Below are positions 9,836 through 32,380 of a stretch of DNA of 35,140 bases, one piece after another. The DNA is from Actinomycetes bacterium (lineage in GTDB: Bacteria > Actinomycetota > Actinomycetes > S36-B12): contig JBAWXR010000003.1 of assembly GCA_037143955.1 (NCBI GenBank), forward strand, positions 1 to 35,140, read 5' to 3'. A model generated the notes under the pieces. That model saw nothing but the letters and a program-made list of their open reading frames with translations, was not told the DNA's origin and did not search any database. Position 1 is the first letter of the stretch, and every line of letters starts with the position of its first letter. Position numbers and translations under genes: made by a program.

Positions 9836-9841
9836 CGCCTC

Positions 9842-13014: not shown

Positions 13015-13045
13015 CCGACCATTGTCACCCACTACCGTTGGCGAT

Positions 13046-15791: not shown

Positions 15792-16631
15792 CTAGGCGCG
15801 AGCCAGCACCATGTCGTGCTCGCATACGAGTACTCCGTCAGGTCCCGGGACGAAATCTCGAATGAGGGACTCCTTGACGCCGAAAACCGTGTCGGAGTCC
15901 AGGTACTTGCTCGCGCGATCAAACACGTGGGTTGTCAACGACAGGTAGCCGTCTTTTGAGACCTTGACGTGAATGTGGGCCGCGCGCCATTCGTGGCGCC
16001 CTGTGTCGCGAAGCAACTTGCCCACCGGTCCATCGGCCGGCACGGGATAGGGCACCGGTCGCACGGTGTGGATCTCGAAACGCCCCTGCTCATCCGTCAG
16101 GTACTTGCCGCGCAGGTTGGTAGCCGGCTGCTCGCCGGGAACCTGCACTGCGTAGAAACCCGTGGCCGCGTTCTGCCACACGTCGAGCATTGCTCCAGCC
16201 AGAGGATTTCCCTGCTCGTCACGTACCGTGCCGCGATATATCGCGGCCTCGCCGCCGTCGGCGTACTCCACCATGGATTCGCCGAACTCACGCACAGGGG
16301 AACCGCCCGCGTAGAACGGACCCAGCACGGTGCTCTCGGTGATGATCGGATCGTCATGGCCATGGTTGATGAGGTCCACCTGCATCGACAGACCAAGGGT
16401 GTCCGACAGCAGGATGAACTCCTGACGCACGTCATCGGAGATCTTCCCCGTCGCCGTCAAAAACTGCACTCCCGCAAACCACTCGGCCTCCGTGAGCCGC
16501 ACCTCACGGGCAAACTCATGAAGGTGGCGAACCAACGACGTCATGATCTCCCGCAGCCGCGGGTCGGGCGTGGCGGCAAGGCGGCCGAGAACTTCGTCGG
16601 TGAGTCCCTGCTCTTGGTCGGACGCACTCAT
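15792..16631 (-). CDS. Intradiol ring-cleavage dioxygenase, hydroxyquinol 1,2-dioxygenase type (PnpG/HqdE-like)
   Basis: RQEFILLSDTLGLS, TESTVLGPFY, DVWQ, GFYAVQ and PVPYPVP (Tyr ligands), RAAHIH (His ligands), YLDSDTVFGVK. Confidence 0.9.
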   Translation of the reverse strand: MSASDQEQGLTDEVLGRLAATPDPRLREIMTSLVRHLHEFAREVRLTEAEWFAGVQFLTATGKISDDVRQEFILLSDTLGLSMQVDLINHGHDDPIITESTVLGPFYAGGSPVREFGESMVEYADGGEAAIYRGTVRDEQGNPLAGAMLDVWQNAATGFYAVQVPGEQPATNLRGKYLTDEQGRFEIHTVRPVPYPVPADGPVGKLLRDTGRHEWRAAHIHVKVSKDGYLSLTTHVFDRASKYLDSDTVFGVKESLIRDFVPGPDGVLVCEHDMVLARA

Positions 16632-17677
16632 GCTGCCGGCTCCTTCGTCTTGACCACGGCAAATCTCTCCAACGGATTCACGAGGCGGTAGCCCACGGGG
16701 AACAATTTGATGCGGCCATTAAGGCTCAAAAGTCCCCAGAGTCCACGGGGTGCAAGCAACACGACGACGATCGCCAGCACGCCGAGGATGACCAGGTACC
16801 AGACGCCGTAATCCGAAAGCCACTGCTGGAGTGCATAAAACACGATGGCACCGATGATGGGTCCCTCGATCGTGCCCATACCGCCAATGACCACGATGAA
16901 GATCATGAACGCCGAATACTGCACCGAGTAGACCGACTCCGGCGTGATGTGCAGTGTGTTGGCAGCGATCATGCTGCCTGCGAGCGCACAGCCCATGGAT
17001 GACACCAGGTACACGATGCGCTTGCTCGACGTTACCCGCACGCCGAGCGATCCCGCGGCCGTCGCGTCATCGCGGATGGCCGTGAAGCCCAGGCCCAACC
17101 GCGATCGCATGATGAGGTACGTGACGAGAACGGCGATCACCACAGCGGCAAGTGACAGCCAGTAGACGTACGCGATGCGACGGCCGGGGCTCAGGACATT
17201 GAGCGCGGTCAGTGTCAGACCAGCGCCACCACCCACAGCATCGATCTGCATGGTGATGAGGCGAACGACCTCAGCGATGACCCATGTGCCAATCGCGAAA
17301 TAGCCCCCCGAAAGTCGGAAGGCCAGGAACGAGATGGGCAATGACAGCAGGCCGGCAATGATGACCGCTACTGGAACCGCGAGGAACGGATCGATCCCCA
17401 AGCTGTCGGCGATATAGACCAAGCCGTAAGCCCCGATGCCGATGTAGGCCTGCTGGCCGATGGACACCATGCCGCCGTAACCGGCAAGCAGATTCCACAT
17501 GGTTCCCAGGACGATGAGGGAAAAGAGGATGACGAGGTTCTGCTGGAGTCCCCTGGAGATGATGTACGGCCCGAGGGCCAACACGATGAGGATGGGCACG
17601 ATCACGGCGAGCCCGATCCACGAGGACTTTGTTGCGCGTCGAACCTTGACTGGCCCGACAGTGGCTGGTGCGCTCAT
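16628..17677 (-). CDS. Branched-chain amino acid-type ABC transporter permease (LivM-like)
   Basis: WNLLAGYGGMVSIGQ, RLSGGYFAIGT, AIRDD...A.SLGV, IGGMGTIEGP, PRGL; ATGA overlaps at both ends. Confidence 0.9.
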   Translation of the reverse strand: MSAPATVGPVKVRRATKSSWIGLAVIVPILIVLALGPYIISRGLQQNLVILFSLIVLGTMWNLLAGYGGMVSIGQQAYIGIGAYGLVYIADSLGIDPFLAVPVAVIIAGLLSLPISFLAFRLSGGYFAIGTWVIAEVVRLITMQIDAVGGGAGLTLTALNVLSPGRRIAYVYWLSLAAVVIAVLVTYLIMRSRLGLGFTAIRDDATAAGSLGVRVTSSKRIVYLVSSMGCALAGSMIAANTLHITPESVYSVQYSAFMIFIVVIGGMGTIEGPIIGAIVFYALQQWLSDYGVWYLVILGVLAIVVVLLAPRGLWGLLSLNGRIKLFPVGYRLVNPLERFAVVKTKEPAA

Positions 17678-18543
17678 GAATTCACCGCCTTCTGTAGGAG
17701 ACCGGTAGGTCGGAACGCCAAGATTGCGAGGAACACGAGGTTGCCAAAGAGCACGCCGTACGACGGATTGATCTGTGCACCGACAGTCTGGGCAACACCC
17801 AACACAATTCCACCGATAAGAGTTCCCCACAGGGATCCCAGACCACCGATGATGACCGCCTCGAAGGCGAAGATCAATGTTGCATCGCCATAGGTCGGAC
17901 TGAACTGCGTGCGGATACCGAGGAAGACGCCCGCGATGCCGACGATGCCGATCGCGAGGGCTGTCGCCTTGGCATAGATACGACGATTGTCGATGCCCAT
18001 GAGCTGGGCCGCATCCTTGTCGTCACTCGCTGCACGCATTGCTCGGCCATCGCGTGTCCGATTGAGATAAACCTGCAACCCGGCAATGACCAACACGCCT
18101 ACGACAAACGTGATCAGCGGGAACACGCCGATGTAAATCGTGTCCGTGACCTGAATGCTCTGGACGCCGAGCATGCCCGCATCAATTGATCGGGTATCGG
18201 CGGTGAAGAACGCCTGTAAGAGGTTTGTGATCACCACCGCGATACCGAAAGCCACGAGGATGGGCGCCAACCCGCCAGACTTCAGGGAGGGATTGAAGAG
18301 TCCCATCTGTAACACCCAGCCGATACCGGCCATCACCGGAATCACGACTATGAGTGTCAAGAACGCATTGATATGGAAATTGTGAACAAGGAAGTAGCCC
18401 ATGTAGGCGGCCACGACGGCCAGAACACCATGAGCAAGATTCACGATGCGCATGACACCGAACATGAGTGATAGGCCTGCAGCGAGCAGCGCATAGAGGC
18501 CACCCAGCAGGAGACCCTGGAGCACGGCATTGAGCCAGTCCAC
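17674..18543 (-). CDS. Branched-chain amino acid-type ABC transporter permease (LivH-like)
   Basis: GLLLGGLYALLAAGLSLMFGVMRIVNLAHG, GRAMRA, IIGGLGSLWG, RPTGL; GTG 18543 preceded by AGGAGG. Confidence 0.9.
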   Translation of the reverse strand: MDWLNAVLQGLLLGGLYALLAAGLSLMFGVMRIVNLAHGVLAVVAAYMGYFLVHNFHINAFLTLIVVIPVMAGIGWVLQMGLFNPSLKSGGLAPILVAFGIAVVITNLLQAFFTADTRSIDAGMLGVQSIQVTDTIYIGVFPLITFVVGVLVIAGLQVYLNRTRDGRAMRAASDDKDAAQLMGIDNRRIYAKATALAIGIVGIAGVFLGIRTQFSPTYGDATLIFAFEAVIIGGLGSLWGTLIGGIVLGVAQTVGAQINPSYGVLFGNLVFLAILAFRPTGLLQKAVNS

Positions 18544-18553
18544 GACAGCCCTC

Positions 18554-19252
18554 CTAGATTCCGAAGTACGCGGACGCGATTTGGTCCCGGGTGAGCGATC
18601 CCGCGGTGCCTTCCAGCACCGTGCGACCCTCAAGCAGGCACTGCACGCGGTCGGCCACCTTGAGGGCCTGGTTGACGTCCTGCTCGACCAGCAGAACGGT
18701 GGTGCCATTACCCGTGATGGTGGGCATCGCGGCATAGATCTGCTCAACAACCACCGGCGCAAGGCCCAGCGACACCTCATCAAGCATGAGCAAGCGCGGA
18801 TTGCTCATGAGTGCTCGGCCAATCGCGGCCGCCTGCTGTTCACCACCGGAGAGATTCACACCCACGCGATCGCGTCGATCAGCGACAAGTGGGAACGCTT
18901 CGTAGACCGACGCGAGATTCCAGGGACCCGGGCGCCCCGAGTGCGCGCCCACCTTGAGGTTCTCCTCCACCGACAGGCTCGGAAAGATACGTCGACCCTC
19001 GGGGGTGAGCGCAATGCCCATTGGCACACGCTTATAGCTGGGTACCCGAGTGATGTCCCGACCGTCGAAGGTGATGGTGCCGTTCGTGGGCGTCATGAGA
19101 CCCGCCAGCGCCTTCATCAGGGTGGACTTGCCGGCTCCGTTGGCCCCGATGACGGCCAGCGTCTCACCCTCCTGGACGTGCAAGGACAGGCCATACAGCG
19201 CCTGGAAGTCGCCGTAGTGGACGTCAACGGCGTCGACGTTGAGCAAGGTCAT
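18554..19252 (-). CDS. ABC transporter ATP-binding protein (LivF-like)
   Basis: GANGAGKST Walker A, PEGRRIF, LSGGEQQ, LMLDE, LLVEQ. Confidence 0.92.
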   Translation of the reverse strand: MTLLNVDAVDVHYGDFQALYGLSLHVQEGETLAVIGANGAGKSTLMKALAGLMTPTNGTITFDGRDITRVPSYKRVPMGIALTPEGRRIFPSLSVEENLKVGAHSGRPGPWNLASVYEAFPLVADRRDRVGVNLSGGEQQAAAIGRALMSNPRLLMLDEVSLGLAPVVVEQIYAAMPTITGNGTTVLLVEQDVNQALKVADRVQCLLEGRTVLEGTAGSLTRDQIASAYFGI

Positions 19253-19992
19253 GACGCCTCCCCACCCAGATCGAAGGTGGAGCCCAAGTACACGTCAATG
19301 ACGGCCTGGCTACGCATGACTTCCTGCGGGTCTCCGATGGCAAGGACCTGCCCGAGTGCCAAGCACATGAGTTGGTCAACGACCGCGGTGAGGGCATGGA
19401 CGATGTGCTCAATCCAGATGACCGTCACCCCCGAGTCTCGAAGAGACCGGATGAGTTCGACGAGCGGCGGTAGCTCTTTCTCGGTCAGTCCGCCAGCAAT
19501 CTCATCGAGAAGTATGAGCTGGGGATCCGTGGCCAATGCCCGTGCAAGTTCGAGGCGCTTGCGATCCAAGAGACGAAGTGAGCCGGCGGGCTTGTCCGAG
19601 AGATGCGCGAGGCCCGTGACATCCAAAGCCCGCGCCGCAGCCGCGTACCCGGCCTGTCCGTGCGCCGAGGCTCCGAATGCCGAGCCGACATAAACATTCT
19701 CGAAAACAGTCATGTCCACGAACGGCCGCGGAATCTGGAACGTCCGCGCAATTCCATTGCGAGTGCGCACCGCGGGCCGCTGTTTGGTGATGTCGGCTCC
19801 GCGGAAACGAATGGTCCCTGCATCCACGGGGAGCACACCGGTGATGAGGGACAGCAGGGTGGACTTTCCCGCGCCATTGGGTCCGACGATGCCTAACGCG
19901 GTTCCTTGCTCCACAGTGAAACTGACGGCCTCCGCAGTGACGACCTTGCCGAAACGCTTCGACAGGCCGCTGACTTCGAGGATCGGGCTCAT
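19249..19992 (-). CDS. ABC transporter ATP-binding protein (LivG-like)
   Basis: GPNGAGKST, IARTFQIPRPF, RLELARALA, LLDE, WIEH, VYLG. Confidence 0.92.
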   Translation of the reverse strand: MSPILEVSGLSKRFGKVVTAEAVSFTVEQGTALGIVGPNGAGKSTLLSLITGVLPVDAGTIRFRGADITKQRPAVRTRNGIARTFQIPRPFVDMTVFENVYVGSAFGASAHGQAGYAAAARALDVTGLAHLSDKPAGSLRLLDRKRLELARALATDPQLILLDEIAGGLTEKELPPLVELIRSLRDSGVTVIWIEHIVHALTAVVDQLMCLALGQVLAIGDPQEVMRSQAVIDVYLGSTFDLGGEAS

Positions 19993-20038
19993 GGGTTCCT
20001 CTGCTGGATTCTGCCGGGGGGGCGATCAGGGAAATGCT

Positions 20039-20070
20039 GTTTGGGGGGCGGGTCTCCCCGCCCCCCAAAC
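20039..20070 (-). terminator. Perfect 14-bp GC-rich stem-loop right after the substrate-binding protein gene (mRNA stabiliser or partial terminator)
   Basis: GTTTGGGGGGCGGG-TCTC-CCCGCCCCCCAAAC; the loop reads GAGA (GNRA) on the transcribed minus strand; no U-tract follows. Confidence 0.7.
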
Positions 20071-20076
20071 CGTGCA

Positions 20077-21417
20077 CTAGCTCAGCGGCTCAACCTTGCC
20101 GCCGGTGGGGATTGCAGGTGCAAGAGAGTTCGACACGATGACCAGGTCGTAGGGGAACTGGCCTCCGTCCGTCTTGCGCCACTGTCCACCGGTCAGCGGG
20201 GTCTTGGCCACGTTTGCGACCGGGCCCTTGGACCAGTCGAGGTCGCCGACGATCGACTTGACCTGAAGCCCCGAGAGGGCCGCTGCAATGGCCTCCTTGT
20301 CGGGTCCGCCAGCCTTGATGACCGCAGCCTGCATGACCTCGAACAGCGCCTCAGAGAAGCCGATCGGCTGAGTCCACTGCTTGCCCGTCGCATCGGTGTA
20401 ACCCTGCGCGAGTTCAGCAGCTGTCTGGCCGGTCAGGCTCGAGGAGAACGGGTAGGACGGAGTCCACCACACCTCGGAGCCGAGGTTGTTGCCAAGGTCG
20501 CCCAGCGCCTCGATGGACGACGGGAAGAGCAGTGCCTTACCGATGGTCGCGATCATCGGGTTGAAGCCCTGCTGCTTGGCCTGCTTCCAGAAGTTGGTGA
20601 AGTCCGGGGGAATCGGAACACCGGTGAGGATCTGGTCGCCAGCCTTCTTGTACGCAGAGATCTGCGCGGAGAAGTCCTGCGTTCCGTTCGGGTACAGACC
20701 CGGATCAGTGAGCGTGTAGCCATTGGGCTTCAGGAAGTCAGGGAATGCGCCCTGCCACGCCTGGCCGTCGGGATCGTTCGGGAACAAGCCGCCGACCTTC
20801 TTGTTGGTCTTCAGCTGGCCCCACATGTCCTGGTAGACCGCTGCAACATCCTCAAGGCCCCAGAAGAAGTGGTAGGTGTACTTGAACGGTGTCTCGGGCT
20901 TGCCGCCACGACCGAAGAAGTACGGCTGCCACGGAGCATCGGACGTGATGCACGGGGTGGCGTTGGCCTCGCACTGATCGGCAACAGGATTGGTGGTGTC
21001 CGGTGTGCCGTGTGCCATGACGATGTCAACCCCGTCGGTGTTGATCAGTTCACCAGTGACCTCGCCGGCCCGCTTGGCATCAGACTGAGAGTCCTTCTGA
21101 ATGATCTCAACGTTGTAGGACTTGCCGCCGGCCTGGATGGGATGCGCAGCGAACCAAGCACCCATCGTGTCGACGATCCACTTATCCGGCTCACCGAAGC
21201 CAGCCAACGGACCGGTCTCGGGGGACACGAAGCCCACCTTGATCGTGCCGTCAACGGCGGGCGCCGAACCGGCGTCCGAGGCAGCGGCTTCTGAACTAGC
21301 CGGAGCCGCCGAACTCGCGGAAGATCCCGAACTGTCGAGATTGTTTCCGCAGGCGGTCACCAGCAGGGCACCGGCGGCAAGAGCCACCACTACCCCTGAG
21401 GAACGCGCAATCTTCAT
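20077..21417 (-). CDS. ABC transporter substrate-binding lipoprotein (Liv/type I periplasmic fold; probably binds an aromatic compound)
   Basis: Lipobox LVTAC, Ser/Ala linker, IKVGFVSPETGPLAGFG, KDSQSD, TPDTTNPVADQCEA; AAGGAG RBS. Confidence 0.9.
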   Translation of the reverse strand: MKIARSSGVVVALAAGALLVTACGNNLDSSGSSASSAAPASSEAAASDAGSAPAVDGTIKVGFVSPETGPLAGFGEPDKWIVDTMGAWFAAHPIQAGGKSYNVEIIQKDSQSDAKRAGEVTGELINTDGVDIVMAHGTPDTTNPVADQCEANATPCITSDAPWQPYFFGRGGKPETPFKYTYHFFWGLEDVAAVYQDMWGQLKTNKKVGGLFPNDPDGQAWQGAFPDFLKPNGYTLTDPGLYPNGTQDFSAQISAYKKAGDQILTGVPIPPDFTNFWKQAKQQGFNPMIATIGKALLFPSSIEALGDLGNNLGSEVWWTPSYPFSSSLTGQTAAELAQGYTDATGKQWTQPIGFSEALFEVMQAAVIKAGGPDKEAIAAALSGLQVKSIVGDLDWSKGPVANVAKTPLTGGQWRKTDGGQFPYDLVIVSNSLAPAIPTGGKVEPLS

Positions 21418-21574
21418 GTGCTCTCCTTCGATGCGGTTCTATGAACCGTGGCGATTCCGACACCCGCAGCGGACGTCGGCGTTTGACCGGTGGGTTGGAC
21501 CACCCTCCGGGCTGTTTTCTCCCACATTTCGGGACAGATTGCCTGCAATGTGGGAAAACCGTGATGGATTTGTG

Positions 21575-22648
21575 TCATGCCGCCTCCGGACGACTGCCGC
21601 GCGCAGCCGCGGCCAGGAGTTCGCGAACGCCCTCGACATCCACGGGACGGGGGTTCACGGGGCGGCCTTCGACCACCAGGGTCGCCGCCGCCTCTATATA
21701 CGCGGGGTCGAAGCCAACGTCGGCCAGGCTCGTGGGGGCGCCGATACGACTGGCCAGGTCCCAGATCCCCGTGGCAGCCGTGGGCGCCGCTAATCCGGCC
21801 GCACGCAAAGCGGCGATCAAAGCGGCCATGGCCTGCGGCGCAGCAGCCTCGTTGAATGCGGTCGCGTACGCGAGGACGGCCGAATGCATCGGGCCGTGCG
21901 GCAGGTCATAGGCGCCACCCAGCACATGGCAGATCTTGTGATGCACGCCCATGCCGGTGGTCCCCAGCGTCCAGCCGGCAAGCCAGGCTCCGTACAGGGC
22001 CTCGGCTCGCGCATCAATGGCGTCGGGCTGGGCAACGACCTTGGGCAACGCCACAGCAAGCGCACGCACGCCCTCTTGGGCCGTCAATACCTGAAGCGGC
22101 GACACACCGGGAGCGTAAAGGCCCTCCACCAGGTGCGCGAGCGCGTTCATGCCGCTCGCGGCGGAGATGTTCACGGGGAGGGACAACGTGAGTTCAGGGT
22201 CATAGACAACTGTCTTGGGGAGCACCTTGGGATCACGCCCCGTGACCTTGCGGTTGTTCTCCGTGAGCCCCCAGATGCTGGTCATCTCCGAGCCCGCATA
22301 GGTAGTGGGCACCGCCAGAATCGGAAGACCCGTCTCCTTCGCGACCGCCTTGGCCATGCCGGTGGACGAGCCGCCACCCAGAGCGATGAGGGAGTCGCAG
22401 CCACGAGATGCCTCGATTGCCCGAGCGGCGATAGCCACCGGCACATGCATCACCACGTCGGTGAAGCGGCCGTGCACTCGATCCCCCAGTGCATGCGCGA
22501 TGCGATCGGCATATTCGGCTTCCGGTCCGCCAGAAATAAGCAGGGCACGCGACGAACCCAGGCGCTCAAGCTCATCACCCACCTGACCAAGTGACCCCGC
22601 GCCGAAGACCACGCGGGTTGCCGGGCTGTCGTGTACGAAAGCGTCCAT
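21575..22648 (-). CDS. Maleylacetate reductase (iron-containing ADH family)
   Basis: RVVFGAG, VMHVP, ALGGGSSTG.AK, VPTTYAGSEMT, SGMNALAH, HHKICHVLGG...LPH; start ATG 22648. Confidence 0.92.
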   Translation of the reverse strand: MDAFVHDSPATRVVFGAGSLGQVGDELERLGSSRALLISGGPEAEYADRIAHALGDRVHGRFTDVVMHVPVAIAARAIEASRGCDSLIALGGGSSTGMAKAVAKETGLPILAVPTTYAGSEMTSIWGLTENNRKVTGRDPKVLPKTVVYDPELTLSLPVNISAASGMNALAHLVEGLYAPGVSPLQVLTAQEGVRALAVALPKVVAQPDAIDARAEALYGAWLAGWTLGTTGMGVHHKICHVLGGAYDLPHGPMHSAVLAYATAFNEAAAPQAMAALIAALRAAGLAAPTAATGIWDLASRIGAPTSLADVGFDPAYIEAAATLVVEGRPVNPRPVDVEGVRELLAAAARGSRPEAA

Positions 22649-22650
22649 GG

Positions 22651-23421
22651 TCAGGCCCCCGCCTGCAGAGCACGCAGCAGTCGCAGCTCGGTTGCCGTCG
22701 GCGGTTCTGTCGACATGACTTCGGGAGAAACCTTGAGCGCCCACCCCGTGGCGGCGATGGCCTCCTCTACCGTCCGGCCCGGGTGGAGTGCGGTCAGCAC
22801 GAACTCTCCGGTGACGGGATCGGGACGCATGACGCCAATGTCCGTGATGATCACCGTCGGTCCCGCACCGGTCATGCCCAACGATGCGCGCGAATTACCA
22901 CCCTTGTAGTTGCCGACGCTGGTGCGGAAGTCGAGTTGGTCCACGAAGGCACGCGCGTTCTGTCGCAGCATGATGAACGTCTGCTTGGCACTGGCGGCAA
23001 TTTCGGGAGCACCGCCTGCACCGGGAAGTCGCACCTTGGGGTGGTCGTAGTCGCCAACCACCGTCGTGTTGATGTTGCCGTACTTGTCGACCTGCGCTGC
23101 GCCGAGGAAGCCCACATCGACGCGGCCGGCTTGGAGCCAGTACGCGAAAATCTCCGGCACGGACACCACAGCATCAGCGGTCTCAGCGAGCTCCCCGTCG
23201 CCAATGGACAAGGGTGGTTTGGTGGGCTTGGCTCCGATGGTGCCGGATTCGTAGACCAGGACAGCGTTGGGAGCCTGGAGCTTCTTGGCCAGATTGGCTG
23301 CCGTGCTCGGCATCCCGATCCCCACGAAACACACAACGCCGTCGCGCAGTTCACGGGCCGCGACGATAGTCATGATCTCGTCGGTCGTGGCCTCGACTCC
23401 GGAATCAACGGTGGCGGTCAT
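22651..23421 (-). CDS. pcaJ: 3-oxoadipate CoA-transferase subunit B (CatJ/GctB type)
   Basis: FVGIG.P, VLVYESG (catalytic Glu), GFLGAAQVDKYGNINTT, RLPGAGGAPEIA; ATGA overlap with subunit A. Confidence 0.85.
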   Translation of the reverse strand: MTATVDSGVEATTDEIMTIVAARELRDGVVCFVGIGMPSTAANLAKKLQAPNAVLVYESGTIGAKPTKPPLSIGDGELAETADAVVSVPEIFAYWLQAGRVDVGFLGAAQVDKYGNINTTVVGDYDHPKVRLPGAGGAPEIAASAKQTFIMLRQNARAFVDQLDFRTSVGNYKGGNSRASLGMTGAGPTVIITDIGVMRPDPVTGEFVLTALHPGRTVEEAIAATGWALKVSPEVMSTEPPTATELRLLRALQAGA

Positions 23422-24275
23422 CGGCTGGCCACCAACTCGTTGTCGATCATGCGCAGGTGCTCCGCAAAATCGGTCGTGTCGAGTACATGGGCCTTGATCC
23501 ACGCCGTGAACGTGTCGCGGTCGCGGCTGATGGCGTCCCACGCCTTGTAGAACTCGTTGTCACGCACGTAATAGTCGTGCGCATAAGACGGGTGAGCGCC
23601 GCGCGGAACATGAGCTATCGACGTAACCACCCACGATGGAAGCCGCACAGTGCATCGAGGATCAAGGGTGTCCACGATCTCCTCGACAGTGACGATCGAC
23701 CGACTCGCCGACAGCACCGCCTCCTTCTGCACACCCTGGATGCCCCAGAGACCAACATTCCCGTCACGGTCGGCCTGCTGCGCATGAATGATCGATACGT
23801 CGGGGCGCAATGCCGGGACTGCTGTCAGCTGCTCCCCCGTGAAAGGGCACTCGATAGTCGCGATCGTGGCGGTGTGGTCGGGCAATTCGGTGCCCACGTA
23901 GCCGCGCAGAACACCGAACGGAAGCCCGCTTGCTCCAGCGACGTATCGTGCGGCCATGCCGGCGTGACTGTGCTCCTCGAGCTCGATGGCATGCGGCCAG
24001 CCTTCTTCGACCGCATCCCGGAATCGCGGCAGCGAACCGACACCGGGATTGCCACCCCACGAGAACACCATTGTGCGCACGCAGCCCATGCCAATCAGCT
24101 GGTCGTAGATGACGTCCGGAGTCATGCGGATCACCGTGAGGTCGCGGCACCCTTGGCGGATGATCTCGTGTCCGGCCGCGTAGGGGATCAGGTGTGTGAA
24201 CCCCTCCATCGCGATGCTGTCGCCATCGTGGACATTGTCAGCAATCGCCTGGGCGAGGGTCTGGAACGTGGCCAA
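23418..24275 (-). CDS. pcaI: 3-oxoadipate CoA-transferase subunit A (CatI/GctA type)
   Basis: EGFTHLIP.AAGHEIIRQ, RMTPD, FSWGGNPGVGSL, EEHSH, HAQQAD, GAHPS; TTG start 2 nt after the upstream stop. Confidence 0.85.
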   Translation of the reverse strand: MATFQTLAQAIADNVHDGDSIAMEGFTHLIPYAAGHEIIRQGCRDLTVIRMTPDVIYDQLIGMGCVRTMVFSWGGNPGVGSLPRFRDAVEEGWPHAIELEEHSHAGMAARYVAGASGLPFGVLRGYVGTELPDHTATIATIECPFTGEQLTAVPALRPDVSIIHAQQADRDGNVGLWGIQGVQKEAVLSASRSIVTVEEIVDTLDPRCTVRLPSWVVTSIAHVPRGAHPSYAHDYYVRDNEFYKAWDAISRDRDTFTAWIKAHVLDTTDFAEHLRMIDNELVASR

Positions 24276-24277
24276 GA

Positions 24278-25744
24278 TCAGCCCCGCGGGTAGAACGGTG
24301 GCAGCTGCGCATCAACGTTGATCCACACAGCCTTGGACTCGGTGTACTCCCGCATGGCCTCGAAGCCCATCTCACGCCCGTAGCCGGACGCACCGATGCC
24401 GCCGAAAGGCGAACCCGGATTAACGCGCTTGTACGAGTTGACCCAGACCATGCCCGCATGGATGTCGCGAGCCATCTTGTGTGCGCGCGAAAGATCGCGA
24501 GTCCACAGGCCACCACCCAGGCCGTAGTCGACCGAGTTGGCGATGGCCAAGGCTTCGGCGTCGGTCGAGAACGTGTGCACCGTCATAAACGGACCGAACA
24601 CTTCCTCGCACGCTACGCGCGAGGAGGGTGATGCACGCACGATCGTGGGTTCGATGTAGCACCCCTGTGCGAGCGCGGGATCCGTCGGCTGCTTGCCTCC
24701 TAGCAGGATCTCGCCACCCTCGGATGTCGCAATCTCGATGTACTTGAGCACCCGATCGCGATGCATGGTCGAGGTGAGGGGGCCCATCTCTGTCGACATG
24801 TCCTTGGGGTCACCCAGCTTGATGCTCGCCGCGAGTTCGAGGAACTTCGCCATGAACTCATCGACCACAGATTCATGAATGATGAGGCGGCTTGCGGCAA
24901 TGCATGCCTGGCCCTGATTGTGGAAGATGCCGAACGCGGTGCCATTGACGGCTGCGATCAGATTGGCATCTTCGAACACAATGTTGGCGCCCTTGCCACC
25001 CAGTTCGAGGTGTACCTGCTTGAGGGTGTCAGCCGCGTCGCGGGCGACGCCCTTGCCGACGACCGATGAGCCGGTGAACGACACCTTGGCAATACCGGGA
25101 TGCTGCACGATGCGCTCGCCTGCAGGCACGCCGTATCCGGGGATGATGTTGACGACACCGGCGGGGAAGCCAACCTCGTTCATGAGTTCGGCGACGCGCA
25201 GGGCGCTCATCGGCGTGAGATCCGAGGGCTTCATCACGACCGTATTGCCCGCGGCCAACGCCGGGCCCATTTTCCAGCTGCAGAACATGAGCGGGAAGTT
25301 CCACGGCACGATCTGGCCGATGACACCCAGCGGCTCGGGCGTGACGTAGTCCAAGAATCCTGCGTCCACCGGCACGACGGAGCCTTGGAACTTGTCAGCC
25401 ATACCGCCGAAGTAGCGGAACGTGGCAGCGGTACGCGGAACGTCCAGATTGCGCGAGTCGCGAATCGGATGGCCCGTGTCGCGGGTTTCCAGCATCGCCA
25501 GATTGTCGACATCCGCTTCGATCGCATCGGCGAGCTTGAGGAGAAGCCGACCGCGATCCATGGCCGACATGCGGCGCCAGCCGTCCTTCGCGGCTGTGGC
25601 AGCCGCCACGGCGCGATCGACGTCGGCCGCCTTCGCCTCGGCCACCTGCGCCAGCAGGGAACCATCGTGCGGATCGACGACGTCAATCGTGGAGCCGTCG
25701 AGTGAATCAACGAACTCACCGTTGATGAACAGCCGTGTCTGCAT
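24278..25744 (-). CDS. Aldehyde dehydrogenase, probable 4-hydroxymuconic semialdehyde dehydrogenase (HapE/HqdC/PnpE-like)
   Basis: PWNFP, FTGS, LELGGK, FHNQGQACIA (catalytic Cys), EEVFGP; DTGHPIRDSRNLDVPRTA and YKRVNPGSPFGG; sits immediately after the hydroquinone dioxygenase genes. Confidence 0.88.
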   Translation of the reverse strand: MQTRLFINGEFVDSLDGSTIDVVDPHDGSLLAQVAEAKAADVDRAVAAATAAKDGWRRMSAMDRGRLLLKLADAIEADVDNLAMLETRDTGHPIRDSRNLDVPRTAATFRYFGGMADKFQGSVVPVDAGFLDYVTPEPLGVIGQIVPWNFPLMFCSWKMGPALAAGNTVVMKPSDLTPMSALRVAELMNEVGFPAGVVNIIPGYGVPAGERIVQHPGIAKVSFTGSSVVGKGVARDAADTLKQVHLELGGKGANIVFEDANLIAAVNGTAFGIFHNQGQACIAASRLIIHESVVDEFMAKFLELAASIKLGDPKDMSTEMGPLTSTMHRDRVLKYIEIATSEGGEILLGGKQPTDPALAQGCYIEPTIVRASPSSRVACEEVFGPFMTVHTFSTDAEALAIANSVDYGLGGGLWTRDLSRAHKMARDIHAGMVWVNSYKRVNPGSPFGGIGASGYGREMGFEAMREYTESKAVWINVDAQLPPFYPRG

Positions 25745-25789
25745 GGGGTCCCTTGGCTCGATGAAGGTTGCGGTTGCTGCGCGAACGAA

Positions 25790-26773
25790 CTAGAACTCGA
25801 CCGGGTAGGTCGGGGTCTTGCCGCTAGCGATCATCTCGGGCAGGGCTGCGGAGTTGTTCTCCCAGACCAGAAGCATGGAGCGCTTGGGTGAATAGCCCTG
25901 GTGGCGGATGTCAGCAGGCATCGCGCTGACATCGCCGGCCTTCATGGTGACGCGTGAGCGACGGGCACCCGTGTCGCGATCCTCGACCTCCCACGTGATT
26001 TCGTCGCTGAGCTGCACGAACCACTCGACGCGATCGTTGCCGTGGATGATCGGAAGGATGTACTCCTCCGTCGTGGGGCAAAACAGCGAGTCCTTGCACT
26101 GGCTGACGACGGACGGGTTCCACGTCACGTCAGAGCGCGACAGGTACGCGAACAGATTGAACGCGGCGACCTCGTTCTCAAAGCCGGGCTCGGCTTCAAC
26201 AACTGGCTCACTCTGATCGACGTCTTTGAACATGCGATTGATGGGGAAGCCAGAACTGTCGGTACGGATCTGCTCGTCACCGGGCAGGGCCACCATGCGG
26301 CGAGCTGCGACGCGACGGCGGGTCACGGCATTGATGTTGCTGCCGTTCTTGACGCCAAATGCGGCACCGGTCTCGTGGGGTGACGCAAAAGGATCGAACG
26401 TCTCATTCGTCCAGTCAGCGAGGATCGACTTGAACGTCTCGCGGATCTTGGGAGTCTCAACGTTCTCGCTGTAGTCGAGTTCGGCCTTGCGGTAGGACTC
26501 GTTGTACCGGCCGGCGAAGATGTCGACGGTGCCGTAGTGGTTCACGGTGCCGAAGACTCCGTCGAAGTTGACGATTCCGTAGAAGAAGTCCCAGGCAACG
26601 TCGCGCTGGAGCGCGCGCAGGAACGCGTCCACACTCATGATGTGATTGCCCGTGGGCCAGGCGATGTAGGCGAAGAACTCATCGCGACGGAAACGGAACT
26701 CCCCCAGCGTGAACTCGTGGTAGCCATCCATGTTGGTGTCGGTGGACATCTGCACGTTGTCGGCGATCGTCAT
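25790..26773 (-). CDS. hqdB: Hydroquinone 1,2-dioxygenase large (beta, catalytic cupin) subunit (HqdB/HapD/PnpD-like)
   Basis: FLRAL.RDVAW.FFYG.VNFD.VFGT.NHYG, YLSRSDVTWNPSVVS, SLFCPTTEEYILP..HGNDRVEWF and MPADIRHQGYS (His-Glu-His Fe ligands), RSMLLVWEN, recognised from the HapD/PnpD family. Confidence 0.9.
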   Translation of the reverse strand: MTIADNVQMSTDTNMDGYHEFTLGEFRFRRDEFFAYIAWPTGNHIMSVDAFLRALQRDVAWDFFYGIVNFDGVFGTVNHYGTVDIFAGRYNESYRKAELDYSENVETPKIRETFKSILADWTNETFDPFASPHETGAAFGVKNGSNINAVTRRRVAARRMVALPGDEQIRTDSSGFPINRMFKDVDQSEPVVEAEPGFENEVAAFNLFAYLSRSDVTWNPSVVSQCKDSLFCPTTEEYILPIIHGNDRVEWFVQLSDEITWEVEDRDTGARRSRVTMKAGDVSAMPADIRHQGYSPKRSMLLVWENNSAALPEMIASGKTPTYPVEF

Positions 26774-26806
26774 CTCAAACTCCTTGGCGTCAGGTGAGGT
26801 GGGTGG

Positions 26807-27334
26807 TCAGGAGGTCTGGCAGATCTCGGCCCAGCGGAACAGCGTGTCCGAGCCACTGATGGTCTGTTGCATCAAGACCGAGGTGCGAGCCGCCGTGAAG
26901 CGGTACGCGGAGCCGGCGGGCAGCAGGGCTTGGTGCCCGCGGCCGAGGTGAATGCGTCCCATGCGGGCACCGGTTGGTTCACCATCGAGCTCGATAGAGC
27001 CTTCGTGATCTGGCGCCAGCGGCGACGCATCGAGCTTGACGAGCTCAACCGTGACCTCACCGTCCATGCAGACGACGAACTCATCGTGAGCGCACGTGCG
27101 CCACGAGGATGTGCCTTCGGCGCGAATGGCCTCGAGTACGTACTCCAAGTTCTTGGCTACGGCGACCTTCTCCCACGGCTTGCTCTTCGAGGCGACCTCG
27201 AAGATGTTGGAGAAGGCGTAGTGGCGGGCGTCATCGTTGATGAGCTCCACGCCGCCCTTGCTGTAGTTGTCCAGCGAGCCGAACACTGTCGTGTAGGACG
27301 AGCGCTCGACTCCGCCTCCTGCTGTGCGGCTCAC
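26807..27334 (-). CDS. hqdA: Hydroquinone 1,2-dioxygenase small (alpha) subunit (HqdA/HapC/PnpC-like)
   Basis: TVFGSLDNYSKG.VE.I...ARHYAFSNIFEVA, EKVAVAKNLEYV.E..RAEG, HDEF...MDG, GHQALLP.GSAYRF, WAEICQ; GGAGG-N5-GTG at 27334. Confidence 0.88.
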   Translation of the reverse strand: MSRTAGGGVERSSYTTVFGSLDNYSKGGVELINDDARHYAFSNIFEVASKSKPWEKVAVAKNLEYVLEAIRAEGTSSWRTCAHDEFVVCMDGEVTVELVKLDASPLAPDHEGSIELDGEPTGARMGRIHLGRGHQALLPAGSAYRFTAARTSVLMQQTISGSDTLFRWAEICQTS

Positions 27335-27358
27335 GGACACCTCCGAGTTCGATCTAAA

Positions 27359-27423
27359 GTTCGCGATGCGAACATGCGTTCGCTGTCAGAACGCATCCTT
27401 GGGAGTGTGGGGGCTGCCGTCAA
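27359..27423 (-). promoter_or_regulatory. Hydroquinone operon promoter with two tandem PcaR/IclR-type boxes
   Basis: GTTCGC-GAT-GCGAAC (27359-27373) and GTTCGCTGTCAGAAC (27378-27392), both GTTC-N7-GAAC; minus-strand TTGACG (27423-27418)-N17-AAGGAT (27400-27395) immediately upstream. Confidence 0.75.
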
Positions 27424-27496
27424 GGGGTGTTCTCCAATTCGTTGTACGCATGCCGATCACCTGTACGCCATGCGTACTTTCACCTAGCATGCCCGC

Positions 27497-28279
27497 ATGA
27501 GTGAGCCGGACGAGCGCCCCGGGGAGTTCGTTCAGTCCTTGGAACGCGGACTCTCGGTGATCCGGGCCTTCTCCCATGACCGACCGCGCATGACCCTGAG
27601 CGAGGTCGCCCGCGAAACCAACATGACGCGTGCGGCCGCCCGCCGATTCCTGCTCACCCTCGAGCATCTGGGCTACGTCGGGTCCGATGGCCGGCAGTTC
27701 TTCCTGCGGCCCAGCGTGCTGCAGTTGGGCTATGCGTACCTGTCCTCGTTCAGCGTTGCCGAGATCGCCCAGGACCATCTGGAGCGACTTGCCGAGAGAC
27801 TGCACGAGTCCTGCTCCGCGTCGGTGCTTGACGAAGCAGAAGTCGTCTACATCGCGCGCGCATCAACAAATCGCATCATGACCATCGGACTATCCGTCGG
27901 GGCTCGACTTCCCGCGCACTGCACATCCATGGGGCGTGTGCTGCTTGCCGCTCTCACCCCGAAGGAGCTTGATCGCTATCTCGCCCGCGCGGATCTGGCT
28001 GCTCGCACCGATCGCACCATCACGGGGGCAGGCGCATTGCGCAAGGAGCTCGATGTCGTGCGTAAGCAGGGGTGGTGCCTCATCGATCAGGAACTTGAAG
28101 ACGGTGTGCGCTCCGTCGCGGTCCCTATCCAGGATGCGCAGGGCCGAGTACTCGCTGCCATCAACGTCAGCACGCACGCGACCCGAGTCACCTTGCCGAC
28201 GTTGCGCGATGACTTTCTGCCTCAACTCATCGCGTGCGCGCGCGAGATCGACGAGGATCTCGCCGGCGGGCGACACTGA
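27497..28279 (+). CDS. pcaR: IclR-family transcriptional regulator, PcaR/PobR subfamily
   Basis: FVQSLERGLSVIRAF, TLSEVA...TRAAARRFLLTL..LGY, LGYAYLSS, VGARLPAHCTSMGRVLLA, DQELEDGVRSVAVP; TAGCAT-N6-ATG suggests a leaderless transcript. Confidence 0.9.
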   Translation: MSEPDERPGEFVQSLERGLSVIRAFSHDRPRMTLSEVARETNMTRAAARRFLLTLEHLGYVGSDGRQFFLRPSVLQLGYAYLSSFSVAEIAQDHLERLAERLHESCSASVLDEAEVVYIARASTNRIMTIGLSVGARLPAHCTSMGRVLLAALTPKELDRYLARADLAARTDRTITGAGALRKELDVVRKQGWCLIDQELEDGVRSVAVPIQDAQGRVLAAINVSTHATRVTLPTLRDDFLPQLIACAREIDEDLAGGRH

Positions 28280-28282
28280 CGA

Positions 28283-28846
28283 CTAGCGTTCCAAGAGCGC
28301 CGGAGTCGCGCCCACCACCAGGGCGCGCACCTGCGCGAGCACATCGGCTACGTCCTGATCGTCCGGGACGGTCACCAGAAGAACCTCGGCGCCTGCGCGT
28401 GCCAGCTCAAGAACCTGTTCCTGCGCTTGCTCAAAAGTGCCAAAGATTCCGCACACGCGTGGGTGGGCATCGCCCACAAACCGTGGGTCGCGATCGGCCC
28501 GCGCCTCAGCCTCGTTCAACGTGCGCCCCAGCGAGATGGGCACGGCAACGATAAGAGGACGGTTGTCTTCAGCAGCATCCAAGAGCGCGCGCACCCGTCG
28601 AACTTCAACGGGGTCATTGCGGCGCACAATTCCGTCAGCGAGCGCACCGTCATCCACCACCACCATGGCGGGCTCAGCGGCGTCCATGATCTGCTCGATC
28701 TCAGCCGGATCGACACATCCGTCTGCGGCCAAAGGCAGATGAATGGCCGTGAATCCCAGCCGAGCCGCCAGGCGCGCCATATGCGCATGCTCGGCCAGCG
28801 ATTGATCCGGATGAAGCATCACCGCAAGATCAAGTAATTGCTCCAT
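28283..28846 (-). CDS. Shortened luciferase-like (LLM-class) protein, 187 aa
   Basis: N-terminal MARLAARLGFTAIHL and C-terminal IFGTFEQAQEQVLELARAGAEVLLV resemble the ends of LLM flavin oxidoreductases; AAGGAA RBS before ATG 28846. Confidence 0.55.
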   Translation of the reverse strand: MEQLLDLAVMLHPDQSLAEHAHMARLAARLGFTAIHLPLAADGCVDPAEIEQIMDAAEPAMVVVDDGALADGIVRRNDPVEVRRVRALLDAAEDNRPLIVAVPISLGRTLNEAEARADRDPRFVGDAHPRVCGIFGTFEQAQEQVLELARAGAEVLLVTVPDDQDVADVLAQVRALVVGATPALLER

Positions 28847-28891
28847 GTGCATTCCTTCCGGCCGGGCGCGATAGGTCTCTAGGCTGGCACG

Positions 28892-30235
28892 GTGTCCGCT
28901 CCCCCGGCAAATGTGCCCGCGCTCCAAGCGGTGCCGCACGCGGTCACGACTCTCGTCGATCGATTACGGCGAGGCGGACTGCCCGTCTCCACCAGTGAGA
29001 CGCTGGATGCCATCGCGGCCGTTCAGCGTATGGATCTGTCACAGCGCCAAGACGTGCGGACTGCCCTGAAGTCCACATTGGTCAAAGACTCCACGCACGA
29101 TGTCTTGTTCATGCGTGCCTTCGAGTCGGTCTTTCCCCGCCAAGCCCGTATGCGGGCTCAGACCGAGCAAACAGACGACGCCGTGCTCACCGACCTCGTA
29201 GACGCACTTCGCGATGCCGACGACGAGCGAGTCGACGACCTACTTGACGAGGCCATCGATCGATTTGGCGGTGACGACACAGATGGACGCAGCGCCGGCT
29301 ATCACGCCAACCGCACCCTTCGCCGGATGAACGTGCCGGATCTGTACCGGCGATACCTCGAACAAGAATCCGGCTCGACTGAACTCGATCGCGCGATCAA
29401 CACAGCCGAAGCAACGTTGGCCATGGAACAGATGCGCCGGCGGCTGGACGACCTTGTCTCAGGACGCATTCGCGAAGACCAACTGTCCATGCAGGCGCTG
29501 GAAGACCCTGAGGATCGGCCTCTTCTATCGGCCGGCCCGGATGAATTGGCAGCCATGCGATTGGCGATGCGCCCGTTGGCTCGTCGCCTCGCCACGCGTC
29601 TAGGCAATCGGCGCAGACGCGGAACGTCCGGCTTGGACATGAGGCGCACCATTCGAGCATCCATGGGCACGGGTGGCGTGCCGGTGACACCGGTGCTGCG
29701 ACGCAAGCGCCCGACAAAGCCCGATCTTGTAGTGCTGTGCGACGTGTCGGGGTCAACCGCTCAGTTCGCGCCCTTCACATTGACCCTCCTGCACGCCATT
29801 CATCAGGAATTCAACCGCGTGCGCTCGTTCGTCTTTATTGACGGCGTCGTGGAGATCACCGACATTCTTGCCAACAGCCCGGGAGTTCTTGACCCGAAGG
29901 CCTTGCTGTCACGTCAGGGCCTGGTCGCCAAGGATGGACGTAGCGACTACAAGCGTGCGTTCGCGACATTCTTGGATCGGTGGAACGACGCAGTCTCAGC
30001 CAAGACCACGGTGATCATTGCGGGCGATGCCCGTTCACACGATCGATTGCCCGCTACCGCTGAGATCGCCGAGCTCGCCCATCGCGCACGCAGGCTCTTC
30101 TGGCTCAACCCCGAGACTCGCAGCGAGTGGGACCTGCTCGACTCACGGGCCACGGAGTACGGCAACCACTGCACCAATACCTTCGAAGTGGCCACCATCA
30201 GAGACCTCATCAGTGCGGTGACGCAGATCGTGTAG
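28892..30235 (+). CDS. CoxE-like VWA domain protein
   Basis: LRRGGLPVSTSETLDA N-terminus, LDMRRTIRASMGTGGVP, LVVLCDVSGST (MIDAS), RSFVFID, IAGDAR, FWLNPE; TAGGCT-N6-GTG. Confidence 0.88.
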   Translation: MSAPPANVPALQAVPHAVTTLVDRLRRGGLPVSTSETLDAIAAVQRMDLSQRQDVRTALKSTLVKDSTHDVLFMRAFESVFPRQARMRAQTEQTDDAVLTDLVDALRDADDERVDDLLDEAIDRFGGDDTDGRSAGYHANRTLRRMNVPDLYRRYLEQESGSTELDRAINTAEATLAMEQMRRRLDDLVSGRIREDQLSMQALEDPEDRPLLSAGPDELAAMRLAMRPLARRLATRLGNRRRRGTSGLDMRRTIRASMGTGGVPVTPVLRRKRPTKPDLVVLCDVSGSTAQFAPFTLTLLHAIHQEFNRVRSFVFIDGVVEITDILANSPGVLDPKALLSRQGLVAKDGRSDYKRAFATFLDRWNDAVSAKTTVIIAGDARSHDRLPATAEIAELAHRARRLFWLNPETRSEWDLLDSRATEYGNHCTNTFEVATIRDLISAVTQIV

Positions 30236-30264
30236 CGCGGCCCGAACCCGTGAGGCCGATACGA

Positions 30265-32321: not shown

Positions 32322-32380
32322 CGAGACTCCTCACGTGACGATCAGTGATGTGCGCGGCACTCTGCCAGCGGTAACACTAC

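Follow-up and report, generated by a model that had tools for sequence, protein, structure and literature searches.

The window, the whole 35,140-nucleotide stretch of DNA analyzed here (contig JBAWXR010000003.1 of an Actinomycetes bacterium), carries a gene cluster for the two-subunit hydroquinone dioxygenase HqdAB. Judged by homology and conserved gene order, the cluster is probably a hydroquinone/hydroxyquinol catabolic regulon, in which a MoxR-class AAA+ ATPase and a VWA protein are proposed to load the Fe(II) of HqdAB. In the textbook view, as one published account presents it, the hydroquinone ring-cleavage route is Gram-negative and the benzenetriol route is Gram-positive (PMC3485097). 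An earlier note on this DNA described the run at 15792-28279 as an actinobacterial version of the hydroquinone pathway. The open reading frame (ORF) listing and the Pfam, NCBIfam, and PDB-sequence searches find all 13 of its genes where the note placed them, 12 co-oriented on the minus strand and one a divergent regulator. The boundary drawn in the note was too narrow, and missed four neighbors at 28283-32321 (AAA+, VWA, short LLM, and thiolase genes). The genes and their predicted products are as follows.

26807-27340, minus strand: hqdA, small subunit of the dioxygenase (PDB-sequence matches 5m21_A, 4zxa_A)
25790-26773, minus strand: hqdB, large catalytic subunit (PF18191; 5m21_B, 4zxa_W)
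24278-25744, minus strand: 4-hydroxymuconic semialdehyde dehydrogenase of the PnpE/HapE type (Aldedh, 579.5 bits; 4go3/4go4)
23418-24275, minus strand: CoA-transferase subunit A, putative actinobacterial PcaI type, glutaconate-CoA-transferase-like (CoA_trans, 77.5 bits)
22651-23541 (ORF; likely ATG 23421), minus strand: CoA-transferase subunit B, putative PcaJ type (CoA_trans, 143.3 bits)
21575-22744 (ORF; likely ATG 22648), minus strand: maleylacetate reductase, an iron-containing alcohol dehydrogenase (Fe-ADH) (3jzd, 3w5s, 3hl0)
20077-21417, minus strand: lipoprotein substrate-binding protein (Peripla_BP_6, 133.4 bits)
19249-19992, minus strand: LivG-like ABC ATPase (ABC_tran; 94.9 and 109.5 bits for the pair of ATPases)
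18554-19252, minus strand: LivF-like ABC ATPase (ABC_tran), overlapping the LivG-like gene by 4 nt
17674-18783 (ORF; start probably near 18550), minus strand: Liv-type permease (BPD_transp_2; 100.9 and 104.2 bits for the two permeases)
16628-17830 (ORF; start probably 17677), minus strand: second Liv-type permease (BPD_transp_2)
15792-16631, minus strand: hydroxyquinol 1,2-dioxygenase, intradiol (3n9t, 8r2x, 1tmx)
27497-28279, plus strand: IclR regulator of the PcaR/PcaU/PobR type, divergent from hqdA (TIGR02431; IclR_C, 163.1 bits; HTH_IclR, 59.2 bits)
28283-28846, minus strand: short LLM-like TIM-barrel protein, 187 aa (likely ATG 28846, preceded by GGAAGGA)
28892-30235, plus strand: CoxE-like VWA protein with a family-less helical N-domain (VWA_CoxE, 150.3 bits)
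30265-31455, minus strand: PcaF-like thiolase (best NCBIfam models are 3-oxoadipyl-CoA thiolases)
31452-32321, minus strand: MoxR-class AAA+ ATPase, CoxD/'MadB'-like (NF047784; AAA_5, 48.1 bits)

The hqdA and hqdB ORFs encode 177 and 327 aa and lie 33 nt apart, as adjacent small (~170-180 aa) and large (~330-340 aa) subunits. The hqdA product belongs to no Pfam family in the Pfam search, and its best PDB sequences, 5m21_A (E 1.6e-56) and 4zxa_A (E 6.8e-56), are both named 'hydroquinone dioxygenase small subunit'. The hqdB product contains PF18191 (PnpCD_PnpD_N) as its N-terminal domain with 176.8 bits versus a cutoff of 25, and its full length aligns with 5m21_B (E 2.4e-143) and 4zxa_W (E 5.7e-131). 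Residues H244, N246, E250, and H291 in the C-terminal cupin of HqdB, the presumed iron ligands by comparison with the PnpCD structure, do not vary among 15 sequences, and 5m21_B has the same residues at the aligned positions. In RefSeq plasmid records (for example at 8362-9945 of L084), both subunits are named 'hydroxyquinol 1,2-dioxygenase' or 'hypothetical protein', and the true intradiol hydroxyquinol enzyme nearby is named just 'dioxygenase'. The hydroquinone dioxygenase is thus hidden by database names, one of them wrong, and automatic annotation is misleading here.

The downstream set of pnpCDEFG-type clusters is present. The aldehyde dehydrogenase (ALDH) scores 755.7 bits with 4o6r ('Aldehyde Dehydrogenase') and 748 bits with the gamma-hydroxymuconic semialdehyde dehydrogenase 4go3/4go4, whereas the next ALDH family scores 442. 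The Fe-ADH protein matches 3jzd (347 bits) and the maleylacetate reductases 3w5s and 3hl0 (307.6 and 293.7 bits), with other Fe-ADHs at 127 bits or less. The intradiol enzyme matches the hydroxyquinol enzymes 3n9t, 8r2x, and 1tmx (271, 251, and 233 bits), with catechol and chlorocatechol enzymes at 145 bits or less. In accordance with these family searches, the gene identities and the pathway logic proposed earlier for the run (hqdA, hqdB, ALDH, CoA-transferase, maleylacetate reductase, ABC genes, intradiol enzyme) hold, and we assign the core to the known type II hydroquinone pathway, whose defining sequence features it has. The LysR activator and the Rieske ferredoxin or YciI gene of pnpCDEFG clusters are not found in the run, and the regulator is IclR/PcaR. 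No Rieske protein occurs among the window ORFs scanned, and the run has no gap above 157 nt that could hold a ferredoxin gene.

The gene neighborhood was surveyed by tblastn of the window proteins against the loci of the best 80 of at least 553 species-representative genomes that encode an HqdB relative. The genome scan matched at least 600 stretches, 553 of which encode a relative. Unless proteobacterial or plasmid loci are named, locus counts come from the best 80, and since these are a best-scoring subset, such counts apply to the part of the Gram-positive clade close to the window rather than to the whole family. Loci with 10 kb on both sides are called fully flanked (n=42). A database search with HqdB gives 3379 relatives at E <= 0.001 out of 4389 candidates. 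The closest is 98% identical and lies on a 2.1-kb metagenome contig, the next are 88% identical, and identity to the 80 loci is 72-88%. The fully flanked loci contain hqdA in 42 cases, maleylacetate reductase and VWA in 39 each, ALDH in 33, AAA+ and short LLM in 27 each, CoA-transferase subunits B and A in 26 and 25, IclR (at 50% identity or more) in 23, the binding protein in 21, the ATPases in 18 and 16, the hydroxyquinol dioxygenase in 17, the permeases in 15 and 14, and the thiolase in 13. Wherever the upstream flank is 700 nt or longer (74 loci), hqdA precedes hqdB.

Of the 49 loci with at least 10 kb downstream, eight have exactly the 12-gene order of the window, and seven of these eight also have the divergent IclR gene. 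Four more loci have the order without only the last gene within the flank. The arrangement is not due to chance, because the same order recurs in other genomes. Given these counts and the at least 553 species genomes encoding a relative, the architecture is not unusual: it is a recurring variant, characteristic of uncultured lineages from water and soil, and no singular invention. Cultured carriers have a shorter layout, maleylacetate reductase-hydroxyquinol dioxygenase with AAA-VWA-LLM-hqdA-hqdB-ALDH, and AraC-type regulators nearby; Nocardioides gilvus also has an FAD aromatic hydroxylase nearby. The statement in the earlier note that the architecture was not known to be characterized agrees with our literature search, in which no paper describes a two-subunit hydroquinone dioxygenase from Actinobacteria; subscription journals lay mostly outside the search, and earlier work is possible. 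In a Rhodococcus paper, 'hydroquinone dioxygenase' appears only as a putative step cited from elsewhere (PMC9609184).

The linkage of the VWA and AAA+ genes to hqdAB is conserved in the Gram-positive loci. The VWA gene is also found in 51 of the 57 loci with at least 5 kb upstream, while VWA, AAA+, and short LLM genes are found in none of the eight proteobacterial loci. There, a Rieske ferredoxin gene, sometimes with YciI, is present in five of the six annotated loci; the sixth, Massilia, is without it. In Nocardioides, Nocardia, and Cryptosporangium, AAA-VWA-LLM-hqdA-hqdB lie on one strand, with the short LLM gene directly upstream of hqdA. The VWA gene is divergent in the loci of Acidimicrobiia and Dormibacterota. 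The AAA+ gene is at the end of the operon in L058, L062, L066, and L068, and the order in L080 is VWA-LLM-hqdA-hqdB-AAA. The linkage has therefore been kept through several rearrangements.

In the window, the MoxR AAA+ gene and the gene of its VWA partner are separated only by the thiolase gene. The Walker A (GPAGTGKT) and Walker B (LLIDETD) motifs of the AAA+ protein are intact, and the DxSxS (MIDAS) residues D284, S286, and S288 of the VWA protein are invariant in 41 sequences. The AlphaFold2 (AF2) model of the VWA protein (pLDDT 84.8) has helices at residues 8-243, followed by a VWA fold at ~275-447. A Foldseek search with the whole model returns only VWA domains (TMq <=0.30) and low-TM Ro60, and leaves the helical N-domain unmatched. 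A sequence search with the N-domain returns 253 unnamed proteins and the Atlas search only unnamed actinobacterial clusters, with no named relatives. The similarity to CoxE of Afipia carboxidovorans is confined to the VWA domain (32%).

The short 187-aa ORF is a genuine gene; it is conserved, at 45-74% identity, across 22 loci. Its AF2 model (pLDDT 93.2) is a compact TIM barrel, which Foldseek matches to the F420- and FMN-dependent barrels of Mer and SsuD/MsuD/SfnG, Mer being F420-dependent (TMq 0.57-0.67, ~10% identity). The protein is ~40% shorter than LLM enzymes (~300 aa) and scores 15 bits with PF00296 (E 0.016) versus a cutoff of 27.9. LLM-class neighbors at 0.85 in the Atlas search are a lead only.

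The literature offers a possible reason for such a linkage. According to one report, the purified Sphingomonas hydroquinone dioxygenase is inactivated by oxygen and by its substrate and is partly restored by Fe(II) and ascorbate, and its authors draw attention to related dioxygenases that are reactivated by ferredoxins (PMC3222310). In nitric oxide reductase, the non-heme iron is inserted by a MoxR/VWA pair, NorQ/NorD (PMC9976466, PMC13036017). On the basis of the conserved linkage, the lability of the enzyme, and the NorQ/NorD precedent, we propose that the MoxR AAA+ and CoxE-like VWA proteins, often with the short LLM protein, would form one functional unit with HqdAB in Gram-positive lineages and insert or restore the Fe(II) of this oxidation-prone enzyme. 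In the clusters of Proteobacteria, a Rieske ferredoxin gene is common instead. In its general form the proposal is tentative: the two-subunit hydroquinone dioxygenases of Gram-positive bacteria would need a MoxR AAA+/VWA machine of their own that loads or reloads Fe(II), with the LLM-like barrel helping in many lineages. A complex prediction of HqdB and HqdA with the VWA protein gives 0.00 versus a mark of 0.32 and, run without controls, argues neither for nor against binding. Among the papers listed by a literature search that covered subscription journals only in small part, none links MoxR/VWA proteins to ring-cleavage dioxygenases.

The CoA-transferase pair scores far below the cutoffs of the PcaIJ/ScoAB models TIGR02428 (47.8 bits versus 243.55) and TIGR02429 (40.5 bits on subunit A versus 128.5). 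Its nearest solved structure is glutaconate CoA-transferase (subunit A, 1poi_A, E 1.2e-37; subunit B, 1poi_B, E 2.5e-41). A tblastn search of plasmids with subunit A yields 254 records. Subunit A is 67% identical to the first gene of the pca cluster on Streptomyces rimosus pSRIMHP, and subunit B is 62% identical to its partner, annotated '3-oxoadipate--succinyl-CoA transferase'. In pSRIMHP the order is a divergent IclR gene, CoA-transferase, '3-oxoadipate--succinyl-CoA transferase', thiolase, pcaH, pcaG, pcaB, pcaC, and 4-hydroxybenzoate 3-monooxygenase, so that the window pair is orthologous to a pair heading a pcaIJF-pcaHG cluster. From these identities and the pca context, the pair is best read as an actinobacterial-type 3-oxoadipate CoA-transferase, PcaIJ in function, which supports the pathway end-point proposed earlier. 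A glutaconate CoA-transferase acting on another acid was also considered, and was rejected because the closest annotated relatives head protocatechuate clusters.

The thiolase is 53% identical to the thiolase of the S. rimosus pca cluster. It passes TIGR01930 in NCBIfam, and its best models are 3-oxoadipyl-CoA thiolases. The claim that one operon takes hydroquinone to 3-oxoadipyl-CoA is overstated in that it omits this PcaF-like thiolase 2 kb away. The thiolase start overlaps the AAA+ gene end by 4 nt (31452-31455). The two genes, which are also neighbors in L003, L007, and L018, seem to be coupled in translation both here and in the closest relatives of the window.

The five ABC genes within the run, as counted earlier, encode one binding protein, two ATPases, and two permeases. 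The binding protein begins with MKIARSSGVVVALAAGALLVTAC, a signal peptide whose last residues, VTAC, resemble a lipobox. The best NCBIfam models of the two ATPases are LivG and LivF, with scores below both cutoffs.

The genes at 15792-28279 are tightly packed or overlapping. The gaps from hqdA to the hydroxyquinol dioxygenase are 33, 45, 2, -4, 2, 157, 84, -4, ~0, 0, and -4 nt, where three spacings presume the in-frame ATG starts 23421, 22648, and 17677. At its likely start, 23421, the subunit B gene has a 4-nt overlap with the stop codon of subunit A. We infer that the run is an operon. A strong 14-bp G+C-rich hairpin without a U-tract lies just past the binding-protein gene (20039-20070, minus strand). 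The 84-nt spacer between the binding-protein and ATPase genes folds at -43 kcal/mol (z -3.8), which would suit differential mRNA stability within an importer operon, and the 157-nt gap between the maleylacetate reductase and binding-protein genes holds a further hairpin set. The terminator scan of the window is uninformative, because it finds five sites versus 7.4 expected.

The IclR protein passes the PcaR/PcaU/PobR model TIGR02431 with 345.8 bits versus a cutoff of 284.75. The 156-nt spacer between its gene and hqdA contains four 15-nt palindromic boxes, GTWCG-N5-CGWAC, at 27359-27477, in two pairs spaced 19 nt.

27359: operator-like box 1, GTTCGCGATGCGAAC
27378: operator-like box 2, GTTCGCTGTCAGAAC
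27444: operator-like box 3, GTACGCATGCCGATC
27463: operator-like box 4, GTACGCCATGCGTAC

The exact motif occurs twice in the 35-kb window, both times in this spacer, versus 0.15 expected. With up to one mismatch there are ten sites in the window, four of them in the spacer, versus 4.16 expected window-wide. The exact box is found in 24 of 40 orthologous IclR-hqdA spacers. The comparison provides good evidence that the boxes are candidate operators of the PcaR-type protein, and the half-site presumably resembles the PcaR/PcaU sites of Pseudomonas and Acinetobacter. A one-mismatch box, GTACGCCCAGCGCAC, lies at 32453-32467, ~130 nt upstream of the AAA+-thiolase pair, which could share the regulator; about four such sites are expected by chance. 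Of the IclR gene, which the earlier note took to be leaderless, a TANNNT-like TAGCAT is positioned 6 nt ahead of the ATG, and a sigma-70 promoter scan finds no sites.

For the window organism we infer the following steps, because the enzymes are orthologous to characterized ones. The Liv-type ABC importer with its lipoprotein binding protein would take up the aromatic substrate, most likely hydroquinone itself, because the cluster holds no funneling enzyme. HqdAB, as an Fe(II) two-subunit dioxygenase, would cleave hydroquinone to 4-hydroxymuconic semialdehyde, which the PnpE-type ALDH would oxidize to maleylacetate. The intradiol enzyme would feed hydroxyquinol into the same maleylacetate pool. 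Maleylacetate reductase would then yield 3-oxoadipate, the actinobacterial-type PcaIJ would form 3-oxoadipyl-CoA, and the nearby PcaF-like thiolase would release succinyl-CoA and acetyl-CoA. The PcaR-type IclR protein, together with a presumed effector, would control the divergent promoters via the four boxes.

Several observations weigh against this explanation. Of the 42 fully flanked loci, 15, for the most part from Acidimicrobiia, show no AAA+ gene within 10 kb, and 15 have no short LLM gene. Both the AAA+ and the VWA protein fall below the cutoffs of their nearest NCBIfam models (NF047784 MadB_ATPase, 321.4 bits versus 475; MadC, 148.4 versus 600). The thiolase falls below the PcaF cutoffs (506 bits versus 605 and 505 versus 597) and is within 10 kb in only 13 of the 42 loci. 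The best solved relatives of the binding protein reach only E 7e-8, so the importer ligand is a prediction. The exact operator-like box is absent from 16 of the 40 orthologous spacers, and the counts cover no more than the 80 best-scoring loci out of at least 553. Finally, MoxR-VWA pairs of mycobacterial plasmids adjoin an NDMA-dependent methanol dehydrogenase of the Fe-ADH superfamily, to which maleylacetate reductase also belongs.

Because of this shared superfamily, maleylacetate reductase could be the client of the AAA+/VWA pair instead of HqdAB. The AAA+, VWA, and short LLM proteins might equally serve the thiolase or an enzyme outside the cluster, or be merely conserved neighbors; we regard such alternatives as rather doubtful. 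On a plasmid of Mycolicibacterium chubuense NBB4 (L086, 3551-7618), the gene mdo for NDMA-dependent methanol dehydrogenase is followed by those for a MoxR ATPase and a VWA protein. That such an arrangement is also the context of the MadB and MadC models, the nearest to our AAA+ and VWA proteins, is only our guess. Maleylacetate reductase is as frequent as VWA in the survey (39 of 42 each). However, three loci without it within 10 kb (L024, L045, and L080) keep VWA beside hqdAB, and in L080 the VWA, LLM, and AAA+ genes enclose or adjoin hqdAB with no maleylacetate reductase gene. In Nocardioides, Nocardia, and Cryptosporangium, AAA-VWA-LLM lie directly ahead of hqdA, whereas the maleylacetate reductase gene is up- or downstream. 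In addition, proteobacterial clusters contain maleylacetate reductase but no AAA+ or VWA gene. The thiolase gene overlaps the AAA+ gene in the window, but its rarity among the loci argues against the thiolase as the client. HqdAB therefore remains our preferred client.

Instead of plain hydroquinone, the true substrate may be a hydroquinone with a methyl, methoxy, or chloro substituent, or an imported precursor converted by enzymes encoded elsewhere. The report on the Sphingomonas enzyme states that it also cleaves chlorinated and alkylated hydroquinones (PMC3222310). The solved relatives of the binding protein do not identify its ligand, and the FAD aromatic hydroxylase and AraC regulators near the genes of cultured carriers suggest upstream funneling there. 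However, the window cluster contains no hydroxylase, dehalogenase, demethylase, or glycosidase gene, the largest gap in the run being 157 nt, and the downstream enzymes are the canonical set from unsubstituted hydroquinone to 3-oxoadipate. We therefore consider a different substrate unlikely and retain hydroquinone as the predicted one.

By title or lineage, the best 80 loci comprise 69 of Actinomycetota, five of Dormibacterota, one labeled Acidobacteriota, and five without a phylum. The Actinomycetota carriers include metagenome-assembled genomes (MAGs) titled Nanopelagicales or Actinomycetales, which are the nearest relatives of the window, as well as Nocardioides, Nocardia miyunensis, Cryptosporangium, Streptomyces spinoverrucosus, and many Acidimicrobiia. 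Synteny with the nearest loci (L003, L007, and L033) reaches past the cluster to IdeR and photolyase, and genes of the MMPL and mycolic-acid cyclopropane-synthase (CMAS) families flank the run. The relatives, the synteny, and the flanking genes thus confirm the actinobacterial host named earlier. No genome of the same species is found among the 80 loci, with nucleotide identity of 73-79% over partial lengths. MAG contigs titled 'Bifidobacterium breve' or 'Bifidobacteriaceae' (L002, L005, and L031, and L019) also carry the cluster and group with Nanopelagicales-titled MAGs in the HqdB tree; these titles look mislabeled.

In a quick maximum-likelihood tree of HqdB with thin proteobacterial sampling, the window and the other Gram-positive rows, 81 in all, group together in a single clade (SH-aLRT 95), separate from three proteobacterial plasmid rows, and the window falls in a 22-row clade (SH-aLRT 98). 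The plasmid-borne HqdB matches are proteobacterial in 23 of 23 records, as are, in agreement with the earlier note, the characterized enzymes; the accompanying statement that LysR control is typical there finds support in three of the six annotated proteobacterial loci viewed, which have LysR genes nearby. That the cluster is no native pathway but a xenobiotic (p-nitrophenol) module recently acquired from Proteobacteria, as suggested by these plasmid copies, often beside transposases, and by the core gene order common to both groups, is very improbable, given that HqdB is 72-88% identical to the 80 loci but shares only 57.7-63.5% identity with the plasmid copies, that the Gram-positive rows form their own clade, that G+C is even across the window (0.60-0.65), that no mobile-element gene occurs among the window ORFs scanned, and that synteny extends past the cluster.

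Three other genes of the window stand outside the cluster. A LigB-family extradiol dioxygenase gene (9032-9898, minus strand; 104.3 bits) adjoins the MMPL transporter gene; it encodes a second ring-cleavage enzyme in the window and has no obvious pathway partners. A gene at 12815-14449, encoding a 544-aa FAD_binding_4 protein, is located upstream of the cyclopropane-synthase-like gene. An ORF of 173 aa and of no family is located between the AAA+ gene and IdeR (32331-32852).

The hydroquinone route is widely encoded in uncultured Actinomycetota (Nanopelagicales-titled MAGs and many Acidimicrobiia) and in Dormibacterota, often with a high-affinity-type importer. This wide occurrence and the importer point to hydroquinone-type phenolics as an ordinary carbon source, beyond pollutant degradation. 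The chaperone linkage is a more novel lead than the claim of the earlier note itself. If the proposal is correct, no ATP-driven metallochaperone or activase will have been described earlier for a dioxygenase that cleaves aromatic rings, and the AAA+/VWA machine would correspond in function to the reactivation by ferredoxins that has been proposed for extradiol enzymes of Proteobacteria. The MoxR/VWA linkage provides a testable idea for how labile dioxygenases work in vivo, and could aid the production of active enzyme.

The cluster shares its enzymes with pnpCDEFG of Pseudomonas sp. WBC-3, hapCDEF of P. fluorescens ACB, and hqdAB of sphingomonads, and the core order of hqdA, hqdB, ALDH, maleylacetate reductase, and hydroxyquinol dioxygenase is common to the window type and to all eight proteobacterial plasmid loci viewed. 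By its predicted gene products, it differs from these characterized clusters in several respects. The regulator is a PcaR-type IclR protein instead of LysR. A PcaIJ pair is inserted between ALDH and maleylacetate reductase, and an ABC importer between maleylacetate reductase and hydroxyquinol dioxygenase. Neither a Rieske ferredoxin nor a YciI gene is present, and MoxR AAA+, VWA, and short LLM genes adjoin the run.

Some of these features also have proteobacterial parallels. Sphingobium cloacae pSCLO_6 has IclR-pcaF-pcaJI beside hqdAB-ALDH-maleylacetate reductase-hydroxyquinol dioxygenase, and a plasmid of Conchiformibius steedae has pcaIJF beside the hqd set. The linkage from hydroquinone to 3-oxoadipyl-CoA is therefore not unique to Actinobacteria. 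However, the transferase of both loci is of the ScoAB/PcaIJ (TIGR02428/9) type and lies in a separate divergent or convergent unit, subunit B of the window shares just 26% identity with that of Sphingobium, and both loci contain a Rieske ferredoxin gene and no AAA or VWA gene. On a plasmid of Variovorax paradoxus (NZ_CP138514.1; L090, 9423-19465), hqdAB-ALDH-maleylacetate reductase is directly followed by a homologous five-gene importer, whose binding protein is 54% identical to that of the window. This linkage gives independent support to the prediction that such transporters serve the hydroquinone pathway. To present the built-in pcaIJ, IclR, and importer genes as an actinobacterial feature, as was done earlier, is thus an overstatement, since Sphingobium has pcaIJF and IclR, Conchiformibius pcaIJF, and Variovorax the importer.

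The pcaIJF-pcaHGBC(L)-pobA cluster of S. rimosus pSRIMHP resembles the window in that IclR is divergent from CoA-transferase A/B and thiolase, whose proteins are 67%, 62%, and 53% identical to those of the window. However, that cluster is fed by protocatechuate rather than hydroquinone, and the window thiolase is detached, in a unit with the AAA+ gene. NorQ/NorD, CbbQ/CbbO (Rubisco activase), and CoxD/CoxE (CO dehydrogenase) likewise consist of a MoxR AAA+ protein and a MIDAS-bearing VWA partner with a distinct N-domain, encoded beside a metalloenzyme. The window pair differs from them in that its client would be a soluble ring-cleavage dioxygenase and that its N-domain belongs to no named family.

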